Part shown: positions 14,263 to 43,788 of the stretch, one piece after another | Layout: the number at the start of each line of letters is the position of its first letter | How positions within the stretch are numbered: position 1 is the first letter of the stretch | Assembly (NCBI GenBank): GCA_963731325.1 | Contig: CAVSUL010000009.1 | Coordinates: 3,240 to 67,239, forward strand | DNA from: an uncultured Verrucomicrobiae bacterium | Lineage (GTDB): Bacteria; Verrucomicrobiota; Verrucomicrobiia; Chthoniobacterales; JAFAMB01 | Direction of reading: 5' to 3' | Length of the DNA stretch: 64,000 nucleotides | The notes under the pieces: model-generated | What the model was told of the DNA's origin: nothing | Databases searched by the model: none | What the model saw: only the letters and a program-made list of their open reading frames with translations | Program-made: the position numbers and the translations under genes

Positions 14263-17172
14263 TCAGTCAGACGGCTTCAGCTTTGCGAGAAGGGTGTGGT
14301 ACCGAGGATCGTTCCGCAACGGGTCCCAGAGCGGATCCGTTTTAAGGCTGCCATACGACAAGTCGGGTAAAAAAGGGAGCTCTGCCAGTTTGAAAAGTTG
14401 ATCGAACGCCCGATTGGCTTCGCCCGCCCAGGCGTAGACGAGAGCCAGGTTGGTCTCCAGATTGGGGCCGGTGACCAGATCTTCTTGCGTCGAGATGAGC
14501 GCGACCGCGCGTTCCGCCTCGGCACAACCTTTTTGCGCATCTCCGAGCAGGATGTCGACGAGAGCCAGCGCGCTGAGCATCCGAGGATTATCACCGGAGT
14601 CCGCCACGCTTTGTGCCAGGCGATCGCGCGTATTGTCAAAGTCGGACAGATGATCGCCCGAGCCACGCAATCGAGCGATCAAGATCGAGTAGCAGCCTGG
14701 CGGCACCGATGCCTGGGCGTAGCCAAAGCCTCCAAAAGAATCGTTTTCCCCCATTTCGTTGATTTGTGCTTCGGCCTGTGCCCAGTTGCGGTCGTAAAGA
14801 GCCAGCAGGATGCGTTCGGTAAAAAAATTCCGATACTCTTCGGTACCGGGCGTTACGGTCGACAGGACTGCTCGCAACTCGGTCGGATCTCCGGTCAGAA
14901 AAAACGTGAGATTTGCCCGCTCGTCTCGCTGCCCCAGGTCGTTCGGGGCCAGCTCGACCGCGCGATCGCACAAGCGTTGCGCCTGCTTGAAATGTCGCAA
15001 GCCGCGCTGGAGAAAGCTAAATTGCTGAATGAGTTCGAGCGAAGTGGGGTCGAGCCGGAGCGCTTGCTCGAACGCGCGGATCGAATCGGCAAAACGACCC
15101 TGTCTCCGCGCGATGTATGCTTCGAGAGTAAGAAGATCGACGTTATTGGGAAGGCTGCGTCTGGCTAACTCGAGTTCCGGCTGGAGACGCGCGTAATCTC
15201 GGTAACAGTAGTAGAGATGACCAGCGTATGCTAAACGAACCTCGGCCGATTCCGGCGCTCGACGTCTGGCCTCGTTGATCGCAGCGTCACCTTGGTTACG
15301 GCGAGCAAGGGAGGAATCATAAAACCGGTAGAGAGCGTCGTGCGCCTGGGTTAATGCACAGTAGGCTACCGCGAACTGCGGATCGAGCGCCACCGCTTCG
15401 TTGAGTTTGCTGACGGCGCCAAGAAGCTGTTTTTCGGCGCTATCGTCGTTTTCGGACGCAATCGCTTTGTTCAGCAAATCCTTGCCGCGCAGATACCAAT
15501 CGTAGGCTTGCAGGTTTTGGGTCGGTTTTTCCTCAATCACCTTCTTCTGTTCTCCGGTCAGAGCGGACTCTAGCTTTTTCGCTACCGTCTGGGCGATCTC
15601 ACTCTGGATGCTAAAGATGTCGGTCAGGCGCCGATCATAACTGTCAGCCCACAGCGTTCGGTCGCTGGCGGCGTCGATCAGCTCGGTGCTCACCCGAACG
15701 CGGTCTCTGTCCCGCTGTACCGTTCCTTCCAGCACATGGTCAACCTCCAGCGTGTTGGCGATCTGATGAAGGTCGCGCTGGCGGTCGGCTCGGTACTGCA
15801 TGACCGATGTGCGGCTCGTGACCCGCAATTGGGCGATCCGAGCGAGATCATTCAAAATCTCCTCCTGCACACCGTCGGCGAAGTAGGTGTCATCGGGGTT
15901 TCCGCCAATGTTCTCGAACGGGAGAACGGCAATACTTTTGCCGGTTGGGGCTGCTCCGGCTGCTCGATGACGAAGGAGAATTCCGCGCGGACCGAGGAAG
16001 AAAAACAAGCCGAGGACGAATCCGGCCATGGCCAAACCTAAGGCCGCCCACCACTGAAGAGGGTGTTTGGCCCGTCTTCGAGCCGATCCCTGAGACGGGT
16101 CATCCGGCGGAGCCGCGCGCTCTGCCCCGGCTTTGCCCGAGCTCGTCAGATCTTCTGGGGACCGCAACTCGTCCGCGGTCAGTCGTCTTCCGGCAGCAAC
16201 TGCTTCTCTCACCCTTGGCAGAGCCTTTCGCAGTTGACCCGGATCTTGAAACCGTTGACCGGGATCCTTAGCCAGCAGGATGCTTAGCAAGGTTACCACC
16301 GGCGGCGGAACACCCTTCAATTTTTCGAAAGGAGGCGCGACATGTTGGTGCTGATGCATCAACTCCGCCGGGGAACCCTGAAAAGGTGCTTTACCCGACA
16401 GCATCTCCCAGAGCGAAATTCCCAGCGAATAAAGATCGGAACGAATGTCTGCGCCCAGCCCGGCAAATTGCTCTGGACTGGCGTACCTTGGCGTTCCGGT
16501 AAAACTCCCCAGCACCGAAATCGCAGCGCCCTCCGCAGCTCCCTTTGCCAATCCCAGGTCGATGATCTTGACGCTCTCCGGCCAGCCTTCCTCGACGCTG
16601 ACCATGATATTGCTGGGTTTGATATCCCGATGGACCAAGTGCTGTTTCTGGATGGCGGCCAAGCCAGCCGCTGTTTGCTCTGCGATCGCGAGCGCCGCGC
16701 CGACCTCCACCCGTCCAGAATGAGCGATGAGTTGCTCCAGCGTTTCTCCATCGACAAATTCCATGGCGTAAAAGTAATCGCCGCCGCTTTCGCCCAGGTG
16801 AAAAACCGAGGCGACATTGGGATGGCGAACACTGGCTGCTGCTCGCGCTTCCCGCACAAACCGGCGTCGCGCCGAATCGTCGCCGAGAAAACGGGCGCTA
16901 ATGATCTTCAAGGCGACCGGGCACCGCAAATGGATATCCAGGGCTTTGTAGGTAACCCCCATGGCCCCGCGGCCAAGCTCCACCGGACTTCCGTCCATCT
17001 TCTCGAGGACCTGATAATGCTCAAACCGCAGCCCGGATGAGATGTCCGCGATGGACAATGTAGCCTTTTCCAGATCCAGTGCGTCCCGCGAGGTACAAAC
17101 CGGACAGGAGTCGCTGGTGTTCAGCAACCGCGTCCCGCAGATTGGGCAGCTCCGTTGGTCGTTTGTGGCCAC
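14263..17172 (-). CDS. Ser/Thr protein kinase with an N-terminal zinc ribbon, one TM segment and an extracytoplasmic TPR-rich domain
   Basis: The zinc ribbon is CPICG...CPVC. The Hanks kinase motifs are GRGAMGVTYKA, HRDIKPSNIM, DLGLAK and TPRYASPEQ. The TM segment is WWAALGLAMAGFVLGLFFFL. A long TPR-like C-terminus follows. The start is GTG. Confidence 0.9.
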   Translation of the reverse strand: MATNDQRSCPICGTRLLNTSDSCPVCTSRDALDLEKATLSIADISSGLRFEHYQVLEKMDGSPVELGRGAMGVTYKALDIHLRCPVALKIISARFLGDDSARRRFVREARAAASVRHPNVASVFHLGESGGDYFYAMEFVDGETLEQLIAHSGRVEVGAALAIAEQTAAGLAAIQKQHLVHRDIKPSNIMVSVEEGWPESVKIIDLGLAKGAAEGAAISVLGSFTGTPRYASPEQFAGLGADIRSDLYSLGISLWEMLSGKAPFQGSPAELMHQHQHVAPPFEKLKGVPPPVVTLLSILLAKDPGQRFQDPGQLRKALPRVREAVAAGRRLTADELRSPEDLTSSGKAGAERAAPPDDPSQGSARRRAKHPLQWWAALGLAMAGFVLGLFFFLGPRGILLRHRAAGAAPTGKSIAVLPFENIGGNPDDTYFADGVQEEILNDLARIAQLRVTSRTSVMQYRADRQRDLHQIANTLEVDHVLEGTVQRDRDRVRVSTELIDAASDRTLWADSYDRRLTDIFSIQSEIAQTVAKKLESALTGEQKKVIEEKPTQNLQAYDWYLRGKDLLNKAIASENDDSAEKQLLGAVSKLNEAVALDPQFAVAYCALTQAHDALYRFYDSSLARRNQGDAAINEARRRAPESAEVRLAYAGHLYYCYRDYARLQPELELARRSLPNNVDLLTLEAYIARRQGRFADSIRAFEQALRLDPTSLELIQQFSFLQRGLRHFKQAQRLCDRAVELAPNDLGQRDERANLTFFLTGDPTELRAVLSTVTPGTEEYRNFFTERILLALYDRNWAQAEAQINEMGENDSFGGFGYAQASVPPGCYSILIARLRGSGDHLSDFDNTRDRLAQSVADSGDNPRMLSALALVDILLGDAQKGCAEAERAVALISTQEDLVTGPNLETNLALVYAWAGEANRAFDQLFKLAELPFLPDLSYGSLKTDPLWDPLRNDPRYHTLLAKLKPSD

Positions 17173-36151: not shown

Positions 36152-36859
36152 ATGGAGTCAGCTGAAGCACGATCGCTGCGGATTGCCATTTCCAGCCATA
36201 GTGGGTGCGGCAACACCACGGCGACCCATAATGTCGGACAAGCTCTGGATTTAAGGGAGGTGAATTTCACCTTTCGCGATCTCGCGAAGGAGCTGGATGT
36301 GCCGTTTGAGGAGATCCAGCGGGAATCGGCGCGCACGAAGATTTTTGATTTTCTGACCGACTTGGAGCTGATCCGCGCTTCGCTGCAGTCGCGTGTTGTT
36401 GTCGGCTCGCGTTTAGCCGCCTGGCTGATGGAAGCTGATCTCCGCGTCTGGTTGCACGCGCCTCTCGAAACCCGCGCCAAACGAATCTATCAACGCGAGC
36501 GCGATCGACATGCGAGCTACGAGTCGGTGCTGTATCACACACTCCTGCGAGACGAGGAAAACCGACAACGCTATCTGCAGGTCTACGGGATCGATATTAA
36601 TGACCGGAGCCACTTCGATATTATCATCAATACGGAATCGATTACCGCGGAGCAGGTATCGAGCTTGATTGTGGCGGCAGCTCAATGGGCCAGCCAGAAT
36701 CAGTTGGACCGGCGAAATGTTCATCTTCAGCGGATTCACCGAATCATTGCCGATGAGCTGGGAGTGGAACCGGCAGTGCTGGGCGATCGCTCGCGGGACT
36801 TTGACGTGGTCGCCGTATACCGCAAGCTCGCACGAGTCGCAGATCGTAGCGCGGCCTAG
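36152..36859 (+). CDS. Cytidylate-kinase-like family protein
   Basis: IAISSHSGCGNTT is a P-loop-like segment without the lysine, as I recall for the cytidylate_kin2-type family. LRVWLHAPLETRAKRI is also present. Confidence 0.5.
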   Translation: MESAEARSLRIAISSHSGCGNTTATHNVGQALDLREVNFTFRDLAKELDVPFEEIQRESARTKIFDFLTDLELIRASLQSRVVVGSRLAAWLMEADLRVWLHAPLETRAKRIYQRERDRHASYESVLYHTLLRDEENRQRYLQVYGIDINDRSHFDIIINTESITAEQVSSLIVAAAQWASQNQLDRRNVHLQRIHRIIADELGVEPAVLGDRSRDFDVVAVYRKLARVADRSAA

Positions 36860-36904
36860 CCGCTGCCATTTCGTCCTCGTGCTCGAACCGGTAGGGAATT
36901 CAGA

Positions 36905-37057
36905 GATTGTCTCGCAACATCGTTCGACGACCGAAGCGAAGGCGGGTCGCACGTACTCCAAGGTGCTCCTGCCCGAACTGCCGCGCGATAGAGTGACAGA
37001 CACTTTGCGAGACAACCGCTTTATCCGATCCTTAGCGAGGACTCGTTTGAGCCGGCG
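36905..37057. repeat. Family B repeat module (full copy), with a degenerate family A right arm
   Basis: CTCCAAGGTGCTCCTGCCCGAACTGCCGCGCGATAGAGTGACAGACACTTTGCGAGACAACCGCTTTATCCGATCCTTAGCGAGGACTCGTTTGAGCCGG is present. Its first half recurs at 21494-21545 and its second half at 43850-43924. Confidence 0.85.
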
Positions 37058-39392
37058 TGATAACCGCTGCGGGTGTGGCCGATTGATCTACCCTGTTCTC
37101 CGCTTCAGCCTGGGGGGCGGGCGAAGAGCTCGGACGATTCTTGTCGACAGGCGGAAGCGTCGCAATAGCGGGCGAACTCGGGCGAGGGGAAGCGCCCTCC
37201 TTTTTCATCACGACCGGCGCGCTCTTCCTTACGGCGCGCTCCATCCGCAGGACTCCGAGAGCGGTCAGGAGCGCGAGGGCAATCACGACCAGGGACACTG
37301 CTCCAAGTCTGACTAATTTCCGCGCGCGTTGTTTTCGGCCAGGCGCACGCTTGAGTGCGGCGGTCGCCGCCTGAGGGTCACTTTGCGGCAGCGGTAGCGA
37401 GTTGCGGTCCGTCAGAGCCGACAGTTGGTCCTCCTGAGCGGTCTGCCGGAGAGAACGCCACCAATCGCCGAAATGAGCGTTGGCGAAACTGAACAACGGC
37501 TGGTGATCGGCGTCGTAGTCACAACGCACATAACCCTCACGTACTAGTCGACGAAGGATTCTGCGGGCGGAAGGCTCTTCTCCGTAGTCTACATTCGACT
37601 CAATGTGGGCGCGGCTGATCGGAAGTGAAATCAAGCAACCCGAGCGCATCCGGACCGCTCGATAAAGAGTGAGGCAAATTGCATCGAGGCGCTCTTGCTC
37701 GCCCAGTTCGAAGCCTAGATAGAGATCCTGGATTTCAAGCTCCAGACAGTCCGCCAAACCTCCAAGATCCTCGATATCTGATTGGTCGAGCGGACGGCGC
37801 GCCTGAGATCGGCGACAGAGCCTGGAAACAAAATGGGCTACCCGAGACAAACGTCCTTCTGTTAGCCTAAGGGGTTCCCCGAACTGGCTGTCAAAATCCA
37901 CCCGGCGATCCAGGCGAACGCCTTGTGAGTTCAGGCAGCAATGGACCATGGCGATCAATTCTTCGGAGCTCGGGTATCCAATTTTCAAAACCTCCGAATG
38001 GGTCAGCAACTCGGTCAGGCCAGGGAACGGCGGCATCTTTCCGTCGCTGTCGAGGCGGATAGTGGTCAGAAGGAAGATGCGTTTCGTTCCGACCAACGCT
38101 AGTAAAGCAGCAAAAAAACCGGCACGGTCGGAGGGGCTGATTGCTTTGGCGTAAAGTTCCTCAAGTTGATCAAAAACCAAGGCAAGGCACGCCTTGAGAG
38201 ACGCATCGGATAACCTCGGCTGCAGTTTTAATTCAGTCGCTTCTCGAAGGCCGGCTTCCGCCATTTGACTCTCTTGGGCATCAAGTTGTCGATCGAGGTC
38301 GTCAGGCGCCAAGTGATCGAGAATGCGTACCAATTCGCCGGCAACTTCCTTCGGATTCTCGGCCAGAGCTGTCCGGAGCTCGCGCCAATTTTTGAAGATC
38401 TGCGATTCGGAGCGCCCGAGCGCAGTATCCTTGAGAATCGCGGCAGCTAAGGCGGCCAAAGGACCCTCGCCAGGGGGCAAGCAGCCGGGCCGAAGGGTCG
38501 CATGGCGCCAGGGACCACAGCCGGGGATCATGTCCGTTTGGGTCAAAAGCGGCAGCACACCCGCGCACACGAACGAGCTCTTGCCTGATCCGGTTGGCCC
38601 GGAAACGACCAGGGACGGACTTCCTTTGGAGTAACCCTCGCGGAGCAAACGAAGGGCCGCGTCGAGTGAATCAACGCGTCCGGCGAACGCTGCCGCGTCT
38701 TCGTAGTCAAAAGGTCGGAGACCTGGCAGTCGTCGAGCGTTGGCAACCCGATTTCGCGTCTGTCGGAAAAGGCGTTTTTCGGCCAGCTGCCGTTGAAAGA
38801 ATGCCAGCAATGCCTGCCGGATGAGGATTTCGAATTCCCCGGCCGAGGAAAAGGCGAGACAAGCTTCCGTAAAGGGGGCGCCGAAGATACCCTGCCAGCG
38901 GCTGAAGAAGCGCTCGGCGGAAGGGTCGGCCGCATGCTTGTTCGAAGGCCGGCGCCGAAAAACCTTGAGCTCGGAACCGCCCAGGAGAAGCCTGCTGGTG
39001 TCCAAGGCCCAGGCAATCTCGTACTCGACCGACGATTCAGGTCTGCTGCCATCAGGTAAGAGATAACGCCGGTCCGGAGGCGCCCCGAAACATTCCGCGA
39101 CTAAAAGGACGGTCAGATCATATTGGCCGGGATTAGGCAAGAACGCAGGAGATAACCCGTCGGCGGCGGTCTTTTCCCAGAAACAAGCGTGCACTATCAA
39201 GGGAACGGAACGCGCCGCCTTTTCGTTCTCGCGTATTCGCTCCGTTGGTTCGAGGCGGCGCAAACGACAGGAGTAGGATGCGATCAACGGGACGCCGCAA
39301 TCGGCCGCGATTGAGCGCAGCACTCGCTCCGTCATTGCTCGTTCTAATTGGGTGTCGGGGGCGGCCGAAACGTATACATCGATGGTGAGCAT
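37032..39392 (-). CDS. STAND-type P-loop NTPase with an N-terminal DUF4062/TIR-like domain and a C-terminal membrane anchor
   Basis: 786 aa, ATG start with GGAG 7 nt upstream. The N-terminal domain has DVYVS..., YDLTVLLVAECFG and SVEYEIAWAL. The linker is LPGLRPFDYEDAAAFAGR. Walker A is SGPTGSGKSS and Walker B-like is LALVFDQLEEL. The TM segment is LVRLGAVSLVVIALALLTALGVL, followed by a P/S/A-rich tail. Confidence 0.75.
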   Translation of the reverse strand: MLTIDVYVSAAPDTQLERAMTERVLRSIAADCGVPLIASYSCRLRRLEPTERIRENEKAARSVPLIVHACFWEKTAADGLSPAFLPNPGQYDLTVLLVAECFGAPPDRRYLLPDGSRPESSVEYEIAWALDTSRLLLGGSELKVFRRRPSNKHAADPSAERFFSRWQGIFGAPFTEACLAFSSAGEFEILIRQALLAFFQRQLAEKRLFRQTRNRVANARRLPGLRPFDYEDAAAFAGRVDSLDAALRLLREGYSKGSPSLVVSGPTGSGKSSFVCAGVLPLLTQTDMIPGCGPWRHATLRPGCLPPGEGPLAALAAAILKDTALGRSESQIFKNWRELRTALAENPKEVAGELVRILDHLAPDDLDRQLDAQESQMAEAGLREATELKLQPRLSDASLKACLALVFDQLEELYAKAISPSDRAGFFAALLALVGTKRIFLLTTIRLDSDGKMPPFPGLTELLTHSEVLKIGYPSSEELIAMVHCCLNSQGVRLDRRVDFDSQFGEPLRLTEGRLSRVAHFVSRLCRRSQARRPLDQSDIEDLGGLADCLELEIQDLYLGFELGEQERLDAICLTLYRAVRMRSGCLISLPISRAHIESNVDYGEEPSARRILRRLVREGYVRCDYDADHQPLFSFANAHFGDWWRSLRQTAQEDQLSALTDRNSLPLPQSDPQAATAALKRAPGRKQRARKLVRLGAVSLVVIALALLTALGVLRMERAVRKSAPVVMKKEGASPRPSSPAIATLPPVDKNRPSSSPAPQAEAENRVDQSATPAAVITPAQTSPR

Positions 39393-39487: not shown

Positions 39488-40108
39488 TCAGAGCAAAGCT
39501 TCGGATTGGATAACTCGAACTCCTGCTTTGGCGAGCTCGTCCAATGCGTTCTGTGAATCCTGCGCCTGGAGGTTTACCCCGCGGCAGGCGTCTTCGATGA
39601 CCGCGGTGCGAAAACCGAGACTCACGGCATCCAGCGCCGAGTATTTGACGCAATAATCAGTGGCCAGGCCGCCAATAAAAACCTGCTCGACTTGACGGGA
39701 GCGTAAATAGTTTTCCAGTTCGGTGGACCGGAAGCGCGCGTTATCAAAGAAGGTGCTGTAGCTATCGATCGATGGATCGGTGCCTTTTAGCACTATGTGC
39801 TGAATCTGGCGCTCATCCAGACCCGGGCCAAAATCTGCTCCGGGCGTGTTCTGCACGCAGTGGACCGGCCAGAGAATCTGGGACATCTCCGCTGAATGAA
39901 TAATCTCACCCGCCTCATGCCCCGGATGATTCTTGGCGAAGCTGATGTGGTCGGGAGGATGCCAGTCCTTGGTGGCGACAACTAAGTCAAATCGGCGCAT
40001 CAGCAGATTGATAATTGGAATCGTCTTGTCGCCGTCGGGGACGGCGAGCGCACCGCCGGGAAGAAAATCGTTTTGGAGATCAACTACCACTAAACAATCC
40101 GACGGCAT
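39488..40108 (-). CDS. pncA: Nicotinamidase/pyrazinamidase (isochorismatase family)
   Basis: LVVVDLQNDFLPGGALAV, ATKDWHPPDH and GLATDYCV (the catalytic Cys) are present. Confidence 0.9.
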   Translation of the reverse strand: MPSDCLVVVDLQNDFLPGGALAVPDGDKTIPIINLLMRRFDLVVATKDWHPPDHISFAKNHPGHEAGEIIHSAEMSQILWPVHCVQNTPGADFGPGLDERQIQHIVLKGTDPSIDSYSTFFDNARFRSTELENYLRSRQVEQVFIGGLATDYCVKYSALDAVSLGFRTAVIEDACRGVNLQAQDSQNALDELAKAGVRVIQSEALL

Positions 40109-40161
40109 TGGGTTCTTTCCGCAGGCGATAAGATGCCGCTAGGCAGCGCTGCTGTCTAGGA

Positions 40162-40253
40162 AGCGGTTTGAGCGGCCTGAGCGGTTTGAGCGGCTTGAGC
40201 GGCTTGAGCGGTTTGAGCGGTTTGAGCGGCCTGAGCGGTTTGAGCGGCTTGAG
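40162..40253. repeat. Tandem 9-mer array (AGCGGYYTG) x10
   Basis: The array reads agcggtttg agcggcctg agcggtttg agcggcttg ... It generates a spurious LKPLKPLRPL ORF. Confidence 0.9.
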
Positions 40254-40345
40254 TGTGGAATACGCAATACGCAGTACGCCGACACGCAATACCGCGACGA
40301 CAACAGGTTTCAAATCTCAGCGCTGATCAACTACCCGCCGCCATT

Positions 40346-40381
40346 CAAGCCGCTCACGCCGCTCACACCGCTCAAGCCGCT
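40346..40381. repeat. Inverted 9-mer array (CAAGCCGCT-like) x4, abutting the pncB stop codon
   Basis: The array reads caagccgct cacgccgct cacaccgct caagccgct. It is the reverse complement of the 40162-40253 unit. Confidence 0.9.
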
Positions 40382-41850
40382 CAGTCCCCGGCCTCCCGAC
40401 GTCGCTCTCCATCAACCAGTCGAACCTTCAGTTCATGCAGGCTCCGCTCCAAGCCAACGGGATAGACATGGGGATTGAGCAGACGCTTCACACCGGGCGA
40501 AAATCGCGCGAGATTTTCTGAGGCATGGTCGCGTATTCGGTCAATCGAAGGATTTTCGTACACTAATTCGCCGGCCTTGAAGACGGGAACCAACAAATCG
40601 CGGCCAATAGCCGCCGACGGGATTTTCCGCCGAAGTGTGACATCGGCCACGTCAACGATCGTGTTATCGTCGCCGATTGGTTCGTTTTCGTTGTAAATCA
40701 TATCGGCGAAATATTCGCGATCGAGTTCGAATCGACGGACCTGCAAAAGGCCCGGGTTTGAGATCTTGACCGCTTGATCGGAGAGCTTGACCCGGTATTC
40801 CCAATGGCCAGGCGTTCTTTGAATGGCGCCAAGCTTGTAAACTCCGCCGAGCGCCGGTTGGTCGAACGCGGTGACCAGCTTGGTACCCACTCCCCAAAGA
40901 TCGATCCGGGCTCCCTGCTCGCGCAAACTTCCGATGATATGTTCGTCCAGATCGTTACTTGCGAGAACTCTCGTAGAGCCAAACCCTGCCTGGTCCAGCA
41001 TGTGCCGGGCTTCAATACTTAAGTACGCCAAGTCTCCCGAATCGAGGCGGATTCCGCTGAGTTCCTTACCCGTAGCCCGCAACCGGCGGCCCGCTTCGAT
41101 GGCGTGTTGGACACCGCCCAAAGTGTCATAGGTATCGACAAGAAAGATCGTGTTACCAGGCATAACCTCGGCAAACGCGCAGAAAGCCTCCAGCTCCGTC
41201 GGAAACGCCATAACCCAGCTATGGGCATGCGTTCCGCGCACCGGGATGCCAAACACTTTTCCGGCAAGGACGTTTGAAGTCGCCGCGCAGCCACCAATGT
41301 AGGCGGCCCTGCTGGCGGCCAGTGCACCATCCGGACCGTGCGCCCGACGCAGCCCGAATTCCAAAACAGGCGCGCCTCGCGCGGCCAGACAGACCCGCGC
41401 CGATTTCGTCGCGATCAGTGTCTGGAAATTAATAATATTCAACAGCGCTGTCTCGAGCAGCTGCGCCTGCAGAAGGGTGCCGCTGATGCGAAGAATCGGC
41501 TCCTGGGGGAAAATGACGGTGCCTTCCGGGACAGCGGAAACGTCGCAGCCAAATTGCAAGCGATCCAGATAGTCGAGAAACGACTGGTCGAAAAGAGGCT
41601 GATCGTCCGAGCCGGTCAGCCCAGCTAAATACTCCAGATCATCCGCCGAGAAACGGAATCGTTGCAAGAAGTTGATCGCATCGCCGAGTCCGCAGGCGAT
41701 CGTGTAGCCTCCATTAAAGGGTTGTTGCCGAAAAAAGAGATGGAACGCCGCACGTATCTCCAGCATTCCCTTTTTCCAATAGCCATAAGCCATGGCTAAT
41801 TCGTAAAGGTCGATCAGAAGCGCCGGAGAAAACCGATCGGCCTGCGTCAT
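40381..41850 (-). CDS. pncB: Nicotinate phosphoribosyltransferase
   Basis: 489 aa. [24 protein letters not shown] and [11 protein letters not shown] are conserved NAPRTase motifs. Confidence 0.9.
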
Positions 41851-41902: not shown

Positions 41903-42394
41903 TTACTGCGATGCCGAAGCTGGCTCGCTCGCCCATTTGATAAACTCGCTCGGACCGCCGGCCAGGTAGCCCACTTGGCGTTTCACTTCCTTGCCGGATG
42001 GATCGAGCAAGACGTAGGTAGGAAAACCCTCAATTCCATATTGCTTAGCCAATTCCTTGTTCTGCGCAGTCTCCGCGGGCGACAGCTCCTTGCTTCGCGG
42101 GAAGTCCAGTTTGACCAACACCAAATTTTTCGCCGCATACTCCGAGAATTGTTTCTGTGTGAAGACTTCCTTATCCATCTTCACACAAAAAGGGCACCAA
42201 TCGGAGCCGGTGAAATCGAGCAGAAGCGACTTCTTCCGGCTGGCGGCGTCATTCTTGGCCTGGGTGAAATTGGTTTGCCAGGAGTTTTCATCACCGAAGG
42301 CGTTCTTCACGGCGAATGATCCGCCCAAGGCAGCAACGACGGTGACAACGGAAAGAAGAGAGCGGAGCGAGATTTTCATTTCTATTAGATCCAT
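41903..42394 (-). CDS. Exported thioredoxin-fold protein (CPFC active site)
   Basis: The signal peptide is [45 protein letters not shown] and GFPTYVLLD follow. The ATG overlaps the PafA-like stop as TGATG. Confidence 0.8.
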
Positions 42395-43788
42395 CAACGG
42401 AGGAAAAATTCCACCTCATCGGAATAAACGTGAAAAGGGTCTGGCATCGGCAGGTAGTCCTGACTTTCCAGGGCAATCGAATCCCAGTTAATAATATACT
42501 GCAAATTCTTCCGCTGAAAATGCGAGACTGCGCGTGAACGTCCAACGGCGCGGGTATTTGCCGGGGGGTGTAGCTTGGCATCGTTGCGCCGCACGGTTGC
42601 GTTGAATTCGCCGATCGCTTTCGCCGGTTTCAGGGCAAAGAACAGGCCTCGTTCGGGATTGATATTGTGGTACTCCAGATCAAGGCTCTGCAGCCAGGGG
42701 TCTTGCCAGCTGAGTTTTTGATCTTCCATGAAGGTGGTCAACAGATACTTCTTCGAAATCCAGTCTACTCCTCCGAGCAAGAGTTCGGGTTTCCGCCGAA
42801 TGGCGTCCAAGGTAAAGCCCCAGCTTTCCAGGATCCAGTCGGTTTCATCATCTTGCCCGGATAAATGACGGGTAGCGCACTCCAGAAATTGGTACTGGAT
42901 GTCAAGAGCATCCTGGTGGGAGCCGTCGTCCATTTCGACCAGCCAGTTTCCGTCCGGATCTCGCGAAATTTCCCGAGTGGCCAGCACCGCGTCCCGCAGC
43001 GCAATATTTCGCGGCAACAGGTCTTCTTCCAGTAGGGTCAAAATACAGACGGTGGTGCCGACCTTCAGCGCCGTCGCGAACGGACTCATGTTGGAATCTC
43101 CGATCAGGAGATGGAGCCGGCGGTACCGCCGGTAATCGGCCAGCGGTTCATCGCGGGCATTGATAATTGCGCGGTTAAACTGCACCCACTGATAGATATC
43201 ATTGACGATATGATCGGCGCGCTGGCTCATCTGGAAGGGAACCTGCCCGTGCCGGTTAGGAACTTCAAAATCGAAAGCGAGAGGGTTGGCCTGCCCGACC
43301 CGGCCGGCGCCGGCGTAGATCTGTCGCGTTGCGAGAAAAGCAAGCAGTGAACCCAGAATTTCTGGCGTAAACTGGGCTTCCCGGCGCATCAGATAATTCT
43401 CGTGACAACCAAAAGTCGCACCGGTGTGGTGATCGATATTGTTTTTCAAGAAAGATATCTCATCGGCGACGCCGAGTTCACGGATCGCCTGGCACAAGAG
43501 AAGATCGCCGGCGATATCGTACGAAACAAGATCTCGCAATGCCAGGCACTCCGGTGATGAATACTCCAAGTGTCCCATGTCGAGGTAGAGACGCCCTCCG
43601 TTTAGAAGAAAACCTCCGTTCCCCGGCGGTTCTTCGTAGTCGCGGTAATGGAGATCAATTGCGCCAATATGACATTTGCGAAACAGGTGGTTTTTAACCT
43701 TTACCGGCCAGGCGTCCGCCTGACTTTGCAGCTGATCCTCGGAGATTAAACAGCCGTATTCAGTCTCTAGGCCGACCACTCGGTTCAT
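42394..43788 (-). CDS. Pup-ligase/deamidase family protein (PafA/Dop homologue)
   Basis: VVGLETEYG, GGRLYLDMGHLEYSSPEC, GCHENYL, ATRQIYAGAGRVG and INARDEPLADYRRYRRLHLLIGDSNMS track the Mycobacterium PafA sequence motif by motif, from memory. Confidence 0.85.
   Translation of the reverse strand: MNRVVGLETEYGCLISEDQLQSQADAWPVKVKNHLFRKCHIGAIDLHYRDYEEPPGNGGFLLNGGRLYLDMGHLEYSSPECLALRDLVSYDIAGDLLLCQAIRELGVADEISFLKNNIDHHTGATFGCHENYLMRREAQFTPEILGSLLAFLATRQIYAGAGRVGQANPLAFDFEVPNRHGQVPFQMSQRADHIVNDIYQWVQFNRAIINARDEPLADYRRYRRLHLLIGDSNMSPFATALKVGTTVCILTLLEEDLLPRNIALRDAVLATREISRDPDGNWLVEMDDGSHQDALDIQYQFLECATRHLSGQDDETDWILESWGFTLDAIRRKPELLLGGVDWISKKYLLTTFMEDQKLSWQDPWLQSLDLEYHNINPERGLFFALKPAKAIGEFNATVRRNDAKLHPPANTRAVGRSRAVSHFQRKNLQYIINWDSIALESQDYLPMPDPFHVYSDEVEFFLR

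Follow-up and report, generated by a model that had tools for sequence, protein, structure and literature searches.

A candidate DUF4062-like/nSTAND1 switch with a predicted membrane anchor beside pncB-pncA in an uncultured Verrucomicrobiae bacterium

The gene described here was found in a 64,000-nucleotide stretch of DNA from an uncultured Verrucomicrobiae bacterium (the whole stretch analysed is called the window), and it encodes an nSTAND1 NTPase with a DUF4062-like N-terminal domain, a predicted transmembrane helix and a short tail. With a probability of about one half, we consider its product to be a single-polypeptide, membrane-anchored NLR-like (STAND) switch, the N-terminal domain of which would by inference be a NADase. 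Taken by itself, it is an ordinary gene, a divergent and trimmed representative of domain families already known.

Gene and protein architecture

The open reading frame starts with ATG, with GGAG a few bases 5' of it. An identical 786-aa protein is borne by a second public contig, and homologues of 31-46% identity span aa 1-660; the identical copy and the homologues establish the frame as a real gene. The parts of the protein and the two genes upstream of it are listed below, with the basis of each assignment in brackets.

37032..39392, minus strand: whole gene, 786 aa plus stop, with DUF4062-like domain, nSTAND1 NTPase, one predicted transmembrane helix and short tail (ORF list and translation)
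38745..39392, minus strand: N-terminal alpha/beta domain, aa 1-216, putative divergent member of the DUF4062 (NIR, TIR-like NADase) family (AlphaFold2 pLDDT 88.9; family profile)
39201..39287, minus strand: ~30-aa insertion separating helix A from strand B, aa 36-64 (profile gaps, low pLDDT)
39006..39035, minus strand: motif S120-S-V-E123-Y-E125-I-A-W-A129, E125 being the probable catalytic glutamate (conservation)
37419..38726, minus strand: nSTAND1 STAND NTPase module, aa 223-658 (PF20703)
38574..38600, minus strand: Walker A, GPTGSGKSS, aa 265-273, with K271 (sequence; alignment A3)
38154..38186, minus strand: Walker B region, LALVFDQLEEL, aa 403-413 (sequence; alignment A3)
37248..37316, minus strand: single predicted transmembrane helix, aa 693-715, LVRLGAVSLVVIALALLTALGVL, with the preceding flank KRAPGRKQRARK (hydropathy)
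37035..37238, minus strand: 68-aa tail rich in Pro, Ser and Ala, aa 719-786, without a globular domain and with a predicted location outside the cytoplasmic membrane (composition)
39488..40108, minus strand: PncA-type nicotinamidase of the isochorismatase family, the upstream neighbour (PF00857, E=2.7e-26)
40381..41850, minus strand: nicotinate phosphoribosyltransferase (PncB), upstream of pncA (NAPRTase_N, E=2.4e-35, and NAPRTase_C)

The strings quoted in the initial annotation were recovered from the translation, namely IDVYVSAAPD at aa 4-13, YDLTVLLVAECFG at aa 91-103, SVEYEIAWAL at aa 121-130, the linker LPGLRPFDYEDAAAFAGR at aa 222-239 and LALVFDQLEEL at aa 403-413. The Walker A stretch GPTGSGKS (aa 265-272, nt 38577-38600, with K271) lies where it had been placed, and the hydrophobic segment was confirmed at aa 693-715, followed by the 68-aa tail.

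The nSTAND1 NTPase module

Judged from its sequence, the middle part of the protein is an nSTAND1 NTPase in which both Walker motifs are intact, and its earlier description as a STAND NTPase is borne out by a Pfam match to PF20703 (E=3.1e-37, 129.5 bits against a gathering cut-off of 27.1), which runs over aa 223-658 and profile positions 3-357 of 379. Searches of the protein and its N-domain against Pfam and NCBIfam gave one other match, a weak one to AAA_16, and a NACHT domain is absent from the Pfam matches. Nine sequences were aligned (alignment A3), among which the Walker A residues G265, G268, G270, K271, S272 and S273 and the Walker B residues D408, Q409 and E411 are invariant. GPTGSGKSS, LVFDQLEEL (D408, E411, E412), R446 and H520 all fall in invariant columns, the last two residues being the conserved Arg and His of the STAND switch.

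Genomic context and distribution

The STAND gene is preceded on its strand by pncB and then pncA, with a gap of 95 bp to pncA. The same adjacency of pncA and a STAND gene was observed at locus L003, where the gap is 28 bp and the STAND version has 1,248 aa and 42% identity. Promoter and terminator scans of the pncA-STAND gap found nothing, a terminator-like site included; the empty gap is compatible with co-transcription, not proof of it, and the STAND gene is likely co-transcribed with pncB-pncA. The neighbouring genes encode RibBA, an epimerase, a cytidylate-kinase-like protein, PncA, PncB, a thioredoxin-like protein, PafA, GltX and AroE, together with type II/IV secretion E and F (T2SSE/T2SSF) proteins, FtsY, TamA and TamB. 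A 200-aa ORF (36413-37015) that has no Pfam match overlaps the cytidylate-kinase-like gene. Neither defence genes, mobile genes nor a compositional anomaly were found around the STAND gene, and no tRNA genes or Rfam families were found in the window. A location in a defence island was rejected, the neighbours being housekeeping genes and six other family loci being likewise without an evident island. The PADLOC search that had been proposed in the initial annotation gave no match for the STAND protein, with no family of PADLOC-DB v2 at E<=1.

Three about equally related lineages were compared, and the STAND gene is present in two of them and missing from the third. At L009, L010 and L011 the order PafA-Trx-PncB-PncA is followed by an FG-GAP gene and then by the cmk-like gene, with no STAND remnant. 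The STAND gene is an accessory (variable) gene at this locus. Universal conservation at a syntenic core position, which had been named beforehand as speaking against a conflict role, is not what was found, as the slot varies between related genomes. PncB of the window and of L003 share 76% identity, against 42-46% for the STAND protein, which diverges faster than its neighbours (67-77% identity). The clade of the window protein is represented by two sequences; a scan of genome contigs for further close relatives gave one irrelevant Acidobacteriota match, a scan of metagenome contigs gave none, and a profile search with P0001 and P0120 added no new ones.

The same context would suit a physiological role outside defence, in which the protein, expressed together with PncA and PncB, would be linked to the membrane and regulate NAD+ turnover; NAD+ cleavage and Preiss-Handler recycling of nicotinamide would then tune growth or dormancy to the state of the envelope or membrane, not to phage. 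The co-directional, closely spaced arrangement with pncB-pncA in two lineages with PncB only 76% identical, the terminator-free gap, the core-genome setting free of defence and mobile genes, tRNA and compositional anomaly, and the PADLOC result all point this way. We nevertheless regard such a role as unlikely. The linkage was seen in two genomes only and may be inherited synteny, the third lineage keeps pncB-pncA without the STAND gene, so that the salvage genes are independent of it, the neighbours of other family members are unrelated, and the fast divergence suits conflict genes better than housekeeping regulators.

Transmembrane helix, tail and family architecture

The segment aa 693-715 reaches a Kyte-Doolittle 19-mer maximum of 2.58. 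A comparable helix (19-mer hydropathy of at least 1.8, located 421-554 aa past Walker A) was detected in 45 of the 53 long members of the family, in which it sits ~464 aa after Walker A, whereas the frequency in a control window was 17%. On average, the N flank of these helices carries 5.9 K+R and the C flank 3.4, with N exceeding C in 41 of the 45. The flank before the helix of the window protein is positively charged too, and this predicts an N-in, C-out orientation, helix and topology both being called from hydropathy and charge alone. Past the helix, relatives carry WD40, TPR, FGE-sulfatase or coiled-coil modules. When seven distant representatives were scanned, the N-domain led an nSTAND1 protein in all seven, and WD40 or TPR matches were obtained in five. 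The predicted post-NTPase helix is the norm in the DUF4062-like/nSTAND1 family and not peculiar to the window protein. The earlier view of the anchor as a replacement of the WD40/TPR sensor, and of the architecture as unusual on that account, is not supported, given that most long members have the helix and that it coexists with downstream modules.

The unusual feature of the window protein is that almost nothing comes after the helix. At 68 aa, its post-helix region is the shortest complete one in the sample, where the median is 522 aa, and its composition includes A12, P12 and S9. A large C-terminal repeat sensor is absent, the NTPase being followed only by the helix and this low-complexity tail, and a helical module of ~70 aa before the helix is missing in the window clade. 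The idea that the tail was frameshifted out of a C-terminal domain resembling the one in P0120, a homologue of 42% identity, was rejected; the downstream translation is full of stops, and tblastn detected neither a relative of the P0120 C-terminal domain nor a frameshifted continuation anywhere in the window.

The short tail and the missing module would also be expected of a decaying or reduced relic from which the outside sensor and the juxtamembrane module have been lost and which is under relaxed constraint and retains little or no triggerable activity. Other features in line with this are the absence from the window clade of W99, a near-invariant residue of the N-domain family, the nSTAND1 score of 129 bits compared with 237-317 in relatives, and the lack of the STAND gene in a sister lineage. 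However, the 786-codon frame is intact and identical on the second contig, the catalytic and nucleotide-binding residues are all kept, and the motif around E125 and the Walker regions are the best conserved parts in comparison with P0120 (65-66% against 46% overall), which makes a relic quite improbable.

The N-terminal domain

No Pfam family was matched by aa 1-216 of the STAND protein at E<=1, PF13271 (DUF4062) included, and canonical TIR domains (PF01582, PF13676) were matched at E<=1 neither by this protein nor by any of 39 family members. At E<=1e-3 the profile of the N-domain family collected 2,473 clusters, of which 1,312 reach E<=1e-10, the clusters being defined at 50% identity. PF13271 is matched by 24 of the 39 aligned family members (best E 2.8e-6), over profile positions 1-82 of 82; some members score above the gathering threshold, for example 25.2 bits against 24.7, and most of the family lies below it. 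The window protein shares 22-46% identity with the aligned members. It is reasonable to regard aa 1-216 as a divergent DUF4062-family member linked transitively through these relatives. Of the DUF4062/TIR-like assignment made in the initial annotation, the relation to DUF4062 is retained on this transitive basis, although the domain has no Pfam match of its own.

Residues E17, R18, E73, D92 and G103 are invariant among the aligned family members and are all kept in the window protein, E125 is conserved in 38/39 and E123 in 30/39, and Y7 provides an aromatic residue in strand 1. The PF13271 model in relatives ends on the E125 motif, and YEIAWALDTSR around E125 is identical in P0120. DUF4062 has been described as a TIR-like NADase with a catalytic Glu and as the phage-defence effector of Avs2-type and other NLR-like proteins, and this Glu falls in the acidic-motif region that matches E125 (bioRxiv 10.64898/2026.05.01.722283, 10.64898/2026.09.04.749371, 10.64898/2026.06.25.731849). 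E125 is the probable catalytic glutamate of the N-domain; from motif position, not from an alignment to these proteins, we infer it to be the counterpart of KpSwz E97, PsAvs2 E108 and Eva01 E87. The proposed conflict or defence effector function is reasonable because DUF4062 has been shown in these preprints to be a TIR-like NADase effector, but it draws no support from PADLOC or from a defence island.

AlphaFold2 modelled aa 1-216 as an alpha/beta domain (pLDDT 88.9, pTM 0.86) with a long C-terminal helix at aa 184-215, and a trimmed 183-aa N-domain reached pLDDT 84.7. The ~30-aa insertion, modelled at a low pLDDT of 57-76, is common to the closest clades only; in most of the family the match to the profile is split in two and skips profile positions ~36-66. 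The Foldseek comparison proposed in the initial annotation was made for the 216-aa model with both PDB and BFVD and for the trimmed model with PDB, and the matches of the two models were weak and of generic Rossmann-like or P-loop-like type (TM-score <=0.43). The sole match at E<=1e-3 was CTP synthetase (TM-score 0.42, rmsd 10 A), and a TIR-STING chain ranked 41 (E=0.18). With two confident models, Foldseek neither confirmed nor contradicted a TIR-like fold. A comparison of the N-domain alignment profile with PDB sequences gave chance-level myosin and Mur-ligase matches only.

A different chemistry, in which the domain would be an enzyme other than a plain NAD+-depleting hydrolase, either a nucleotide or nucleoside N-glycosidase or a maker of an ADP-ribose-derived signal, is suggested by the distant similarity of DUF4062 to TIR and nucleoside 2-deoxyribosyltransferase families, by the first annotation of the Avs2 DUF4062 effector as a CMP hydrolase, by the uninformative structure searches and by a divergent branch, mostly below the Pfam cut-off, in which substrate shifts are possible, but the adjoining nicotinamidase fits nicotinamide as the product, and we find this alternative very doubtful.

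Comparison with known systems

The closest parallels are NIR/DUF4062-Avs2 (PsAvs2) and the NIR-carrying NLR-like proteins (10.64898/2026.09.04.749371), in which one gene likewise encodes a DUF4062-type domain, with its conserved Glu, at the N-terminus and a STAND NTPase after it, and the logic expected here, from trigger through oligomerisation to NAD+ depletion, would be that of PsAvs2. The window protein differs in its NTPase, which belongs to nSTAND1 and not to the Avs2 clade, in the predicted transmembrane helix after it, in the lack of a TPR sensor for phage terminase, in an N-domain too divergent for PF13271 and with a 30-aa insertion, and in having no defence genes nearby. Swarozyc (KpSwz) and Evangelion, which are stand-alone DUF4062 proteins (10.64898/2026.05.01.722283, 10.64898/2026.06.25.731849), share the DUF4062 core and the helical elements C-terminal to it, the modelled helix at aa 184-215 occupying a position comparable to that of the KpSwz stalk, as well as the catalytic Glu in the acidic motif (predicted in the window protein). 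In contrast, they consist of ~200 aa plus an auxiliary region, carry neither a STAND NTPase nor a membrane anchor, and are activated directly by phage portal or DNA-metabolism proteins.

The nSTAND1 conflict NTPases (PF20703; Kaur et al., eLife 2021, PMC8195603) have the full module in common with the window protein, with the G-L-x-x-F...G-R lead-in, GxxGSGKSS and hhhhDQxEE, and also an N-terminal effector slot and a variable C-terminus, but TIR, caspase, trypsin, kinase or EAD N-termini and a cytoplasmic logic are described for them. A DUF4062-like N-domain combined with a post-nSTAND1 helix was not found described in the nSTAND1 and DUF4062 literature surveyed, which is no proof of novelty. 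Eukaryotic TEP1, NWD1, NWD2 and NPHP3 (DUF4062-NACHT-WD40) show the same order of DUF4062-type domain, STAND NTPase and WD40/TPR repeats, the repeats being those of the family relatives, but they have NACHT instead of nSTAND1 and are soluble, without a transmembrane helix. By analogy only, the whole family resembles Toll-like receptors in a repeat-type module predicted outside, a single-pass helix and a TIR-like domain inside; the polarity is opposite, TLRs being N-out, the family has an interposed STAND NTPase, the outside domains are non-homologous, and the window protein lacks an outside repeat module.

Proposed mechanism

In the membrane-anchored STAND switch that we favour, the N-terminal domain would be a TIR-like NAD+ glycohydrolase, as the 2026 work on DUF4062 suggests, and would be inactive in the resting monomer. 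A trigger would lead to nucleotide-dependent oligomerisation of the STAND module, the N-domains would be brought together, and NAD+ would be cut to ADP-ribose and nicotinamide, with growth arrest or abortive infection as the outcome. In the family, the variable post-helix module (WD40, TPR, FGE-sulfatase or coiled coil) may act as a sensor beyond the cytoplasmic membrane, and if the sensors do lie outside, periplasmic or envelope events would be what is sensed. The window gene may have lost a globular outside module or never had one; since it has none, the trigger would have to act via the tail, the helix or membrane state, the helical region in the cytoplasm or a partner protein. Through its likely co-transcription with pncB-pncA, the NADase may be tied to the recycling of nicotinamide, its own product, which is the weakest step. 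It is conceivable, if rather improbable, that the family consists of transmembrane NLR-like receptors linking periplasmic sensors to a cytoplasmic TIR-like NADase and that in the window clade this receptor is wired to pncB-pncA as a reversible growth brake, not a suicide switch.

Implications

To our knowledge, the experimentally characterised bacterial STAND/NLR-like immune proteins are all cytosolic sensors of phage proteins, and we know of no description of outside-in STAND immunity or signalling for Avs, bNACHT or other characterised bacterial STANDs. A large family with a predicted helix after the STAND module and a variable presumed sensor beyond it represents a knowledge gap. Among natural versions the window gene is the smallest, with effector, switch and anchor and without the sensor, and could be handy for probing the contribution of the membrane segment. 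From the linkage with the pncA and pncB genes comes a testable hypothesis that ties an immune-type NADase to NAD salvage. If the predicted topology is true, the family would monitor the envelope or periplasm and respond with a cytoplasmic TIR-like NADase.

Sequence features of the STAND gene

The STAND gene (37032-39392, minus strand) encodes a protein of 786 aa with an ATG start codon and a GGAG just 5' of it, and its base composition is in line with the rest of the window. The ORF and all of the strings quoted in the initial annotation were recovered in the translation, and an identical protein, adjoining the same isochorismatase gene, was found on a second public contig. The features of the protein are as follows.

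Features of the STAND protein
aa 4-13: IDVYVSAAPD, N-terminal domain
aa 91-103: YDLTVLLVAECFG, N-terminal domain
aa 121-130: SVEYEIAWAL, N-terminal domain
aa 222-239: LPGLRPFDYEDAAAFAGR, lead-in to the NTPase
aa 265-273: Walker A, GPTGSGKSS, with K271 (GPTGSGKS at nt 38577-38600, as originally reported)
aa 403-413: Walker B, LALVFDQLEEL
aa 693-715: hydrophobic segment of 23 residues, hydropathy 2.58
after the hydrophobic segment: tail of 68 aa, Ala/Pro/Ser-rich in composition

Directly downstream and in another frame lies a 200-aa ORF (36413-37015, minus strand), which overlaps the opposite-strand cytidylate-kinase-like gene, matches no Pfam family and in all likelihood is not a real gene.

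Classification of the N-terminal domain

Residues 1-216 matched no Pfam, NCBIfam or PADLOC model. A profile of this domain was built from five sequences and searched against 1.84 billion representative proteins, which yielded 2,473 clusters at E<=1e-3, of which 1,312 also passed E<=1e-10; many of the matches listed are 1,000-2,400 aa long. All seven distant representatives that were scanned with Pfam are nSTAND1 proteins with the domain at their N-terminus; two of them have WD40, one WD40 plus TPR and two TPR only. When 39 family members were scanned singly, 24 matched PF13271 (DUF4062), the best at E=2.8e-6; the matches span all 82 model positions, starting at the first strand and ending with the S-G-T-E-Y-E-x-x-x-A motif, and at least one member exceeded the gathering score. 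Three 2026 preprints showed DUF4062, which one of them renamed NIR, to be a NAD+ glycohydrolase of TIR-like type that has a catalytic glutamate (bioRxiv 10.64898/2026.05.01.722283, 10.64898/2026.09.04.749371, 10.64898/2026.06.25.731849). The same preprints report it as the effector of an Avs2 protein (NIR-Avs2, 10.64898/2026.09.04.749371) and other NLR-like proteins and as active in human TEP1, and it forms the core of the stand-alone defence proteins Swarozyc and Evangelion (10.64898/2026.05.01.722283, 10.64898/2026.06.25.731849). The relatives' matches and these preprints thus support the earlier guess of a DUF4062/TIR-like domain, solely through transitive sequence evidence, as the window protein itself has no PF13271 match; by transitive homology it is assigned to the DUF4062 superfamily.

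The window domain is divergent, with 22-46% identity to other members, and shares with the nearest clades an insertion of about 30 aa (aa 36-64). The family-invariant residues E17, R18, E73, D92 and G103 are all kept. E125, conserved in 38 of 39 members, is present (E123 is conserved in 30 of 39). The near-invariant W99 is lost: the tryptophan of the family motif ILWSRLG occurs in 36 of 39 members and is missing from the window protein (aa 96-103, nt 39084-39107) and from its nearest homologue, P0120 (1,248 aa).

AlphaFold2 models of aa 1-216 (pLDDT 88.9, pTM 0.86) and aa 1-183 (pLDDT 84.7) predicted the order strand, helix, inserted strand and helix, strand, strand, E125 helix, strand, helices and strand, with a long terminal helix ending the aa 1-216 model after the last strand. 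Foldseek searches of PDB and BFVD returned weak, generic three-layer alpha/beta matches only (TM-score <=0.43), including CTP synthetase, thymidylate kinases and MeaB; a TIR-STING chain ranked 41st with E=0.18.

Other arrangements were also recorded in the family. According to Pfam, a Ser/Thr protein kinase domain precedes the DUF4062-like domain in four members (P0009, P0036, P0061 and P0070), which would then have the order kinase, DUF4062-like, nSTAND1. In P0084, P0089 and P0099 the profile search placed the start of the DUF4062-like domain at about residue 340-360.

The NTPase module

The proposed central nSTAND-type NTPase was borne out by Pfam, in which aa 223-658 matched nSTAND1 (PF20703) with 129.5 bits and E=3e-37; on this domain assignment it is a genuine nSTAND1 protein that the window encodes. 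When nine sequences, the window protein and relatives, were aligned, R446, H520 and the residues of both Walker motifs fell in invariant columns, so that the nucleotide switch appears to be intact. Relatives score higher (237-317 bits), and a helical module of about 70 aa that other members have before the membrane segment is missing from both the window protein and P0120.

The membrane segment and the modules that follow it

Among 53 family members of sufficient length, 45 were found to carry a 19-residue window of hydropathy >=1.8 at a constant position, 421-554 aa past Walker A (median 464), and six of the remaining eight fall slightly below this threshold at the same place; an equal-size control window within the NTPase passed in 17% of proteins. 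Lys+Arg averaged 5.9 over the 15 residues that precede the segment versus 3.4 after it and was higher on the N-terminal flank in 41 of 45 members, so that the positive-inside rule predicts the effector and NTPase inside and the C-terminus outside.

In relatives the segment is followed by WD40, TPR, FGE-sulfatase, long coiled-coil repeats, or a Pro/Ser/Ala/Thr-rich linker terminating in a small uncharacterised domain, with a median post-segment length of 522 residues. The helix is thus a constant of the family with variable modules after it, and the idea that a membrane anchor had replaced the WD40/TPR sensor did not hold; the sensor of the family presumably lies beyond the predicted helix. Of the complete cases, the window protein has the shortest stretch past the segment (68 residues, no globular domain), and a search of the downstream sequence showed that no frameshifted continuation of the tail exists. 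At the C-terminus of P0120 (aa ~1130-1248; contig L003) and of another member, P0097 (contig L005), lies the same globular domain of roughly 115 aa, with 36% identity between the two copies (E=7e-28). It is located past the membrane helix behind a long Pro/Ser/Ala/Thr-rich linker, matches no Pfam family and does not occur in the window.

Genomic context

The 64 kb of the window belong to the core chromosome and encode RibBA, an epimerase, a cytidylate-kinase-like protein, PafA, a thioredoxin-like protein, GltX, AroE, type II/IV secretion E and F (T2SSE/T2SSF), FtsY, TamA, TamB, a porin and others; no tRNA genes, Rfam matches or recognisable defence or mobile genes were found in it. A separate large signalling protein of 969 aa (14263-17172, minus strand) combines a Ser/Thr kinase domain with TPR repeats and also has a weak FlgO-like match. 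The loci compared are listed below.

Genes at the STAND locus and at related loci
Window 39488-41850, minus: pncB (NAPRTase) and pncA (nicotinamidase-type isochorismatase), directly upstream of the STAND gene
Window 41903-42397, minus: thioredoxin-like gene, just upstream of pncB
Window 42394-43788, minus: Pup-ligase family gene (PafA/Dop type), 4-bp overlap with the thioredoxin-like gene
L003 658-3008: pncB-pncA in the P0120 contig
L009 14271-15359, opposite strand: FG-GAP repeat gene (362 aa) in the STAND slot
L010 14271-14852 (truncated at the contig end), opposite strand: the same
L011 5164-6252, opposite strand: the same

pncB and pncA are the Preiss-Handler NAD-salvage pair; pncA and the STAND gene are separated by 95 bp with no terminator-like site. 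P0120, 42-46% identical to the window protein, is encoded in the same order (Trx-PncB-PncA-STAND) with a gap of 28 bp, and PncB and PncA of the two genomes are 76% and 67% identical. In a third lineage, about equally distant from the window (PncB 77%, PafA 97%; L009-L011), PafA-Trx-PncB-PncA is followed by the unrelated opposite-strand FG-GAP repeat gene and the cytidylate-kinase-like gene, and tblastn detected no STAND remnant at this locus. This presence and absence means that the STAND gene is accessory and its slot variable. Its sequence diverges far more rapidly than those of the adjacent genes. The window and L009-L011 both preserve the order PafA-Trx-PncB-PncA; in L003 only Trx-PncB-PncA is visible, since its contig starts at this point. 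A DUF4062 NADase releases nicotinamide, on which PncA acts, and pncB-pncA adjoin a putative NADase gene.

Comparison with known systems and proposed function

The gene is predicted to work most like NIR-Avs2 and other DUF4062-carrying NLR-like proteins. It differs from Avs in having no PADLOC match, no repeat sensor and a different NTPase clade, and it falls outside bNACHT and canonical TIR proteins. The DUF4062-like, nSTAND1, helix and outside-repeat architecture is not described in Kaur et al. 2020 and 2021, the DGR paper, the three DUF4062 preprints or the 2026 Nature STAND survey, and may be described elsewhere.

The best reading, to which we give a probability of about one half, is a single-gene, membrane-anchored STAND switch; it builds on the observed domain order, intact motifs, family relationships, family-wide helix and locus variability. 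[quoted passage not shown] Across the family the module outside the membrane would be the sensor; in the sensor-less window protein the trigger might act via its tail or helix, through a partner, or via the cytoplasmic helical region.

A physiological role in NAD turnover, coupled to the adjoining pncA and pncB, seems unlikely; the link with NAD salvage is seen in two related genomes only and could be inherited synteny, and next to the other members that were sampled lie unrelated genes, for the most part housekeeping (SHMT, EF-P, cytochrome bc, ABC transporters, NRPS). We doubt still more that the gene is a decaying relic. Equally doubtful is a different N-glycosidase or signalling chemistry of the N-terminal domain.

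The gene is a divergent, shortened representative of a large family in which two known modules are combined with a family-wide membrane anchor. The observations of the initial annotation stand, and of its interpretation the nSTAND1 and DUF4062 links are retained and the exchange of sensor for anchor is dropped. The single gene is fairly ordinary; the family pattern that it exposed and the pncA/pncB linkage merit systematic follow-up.
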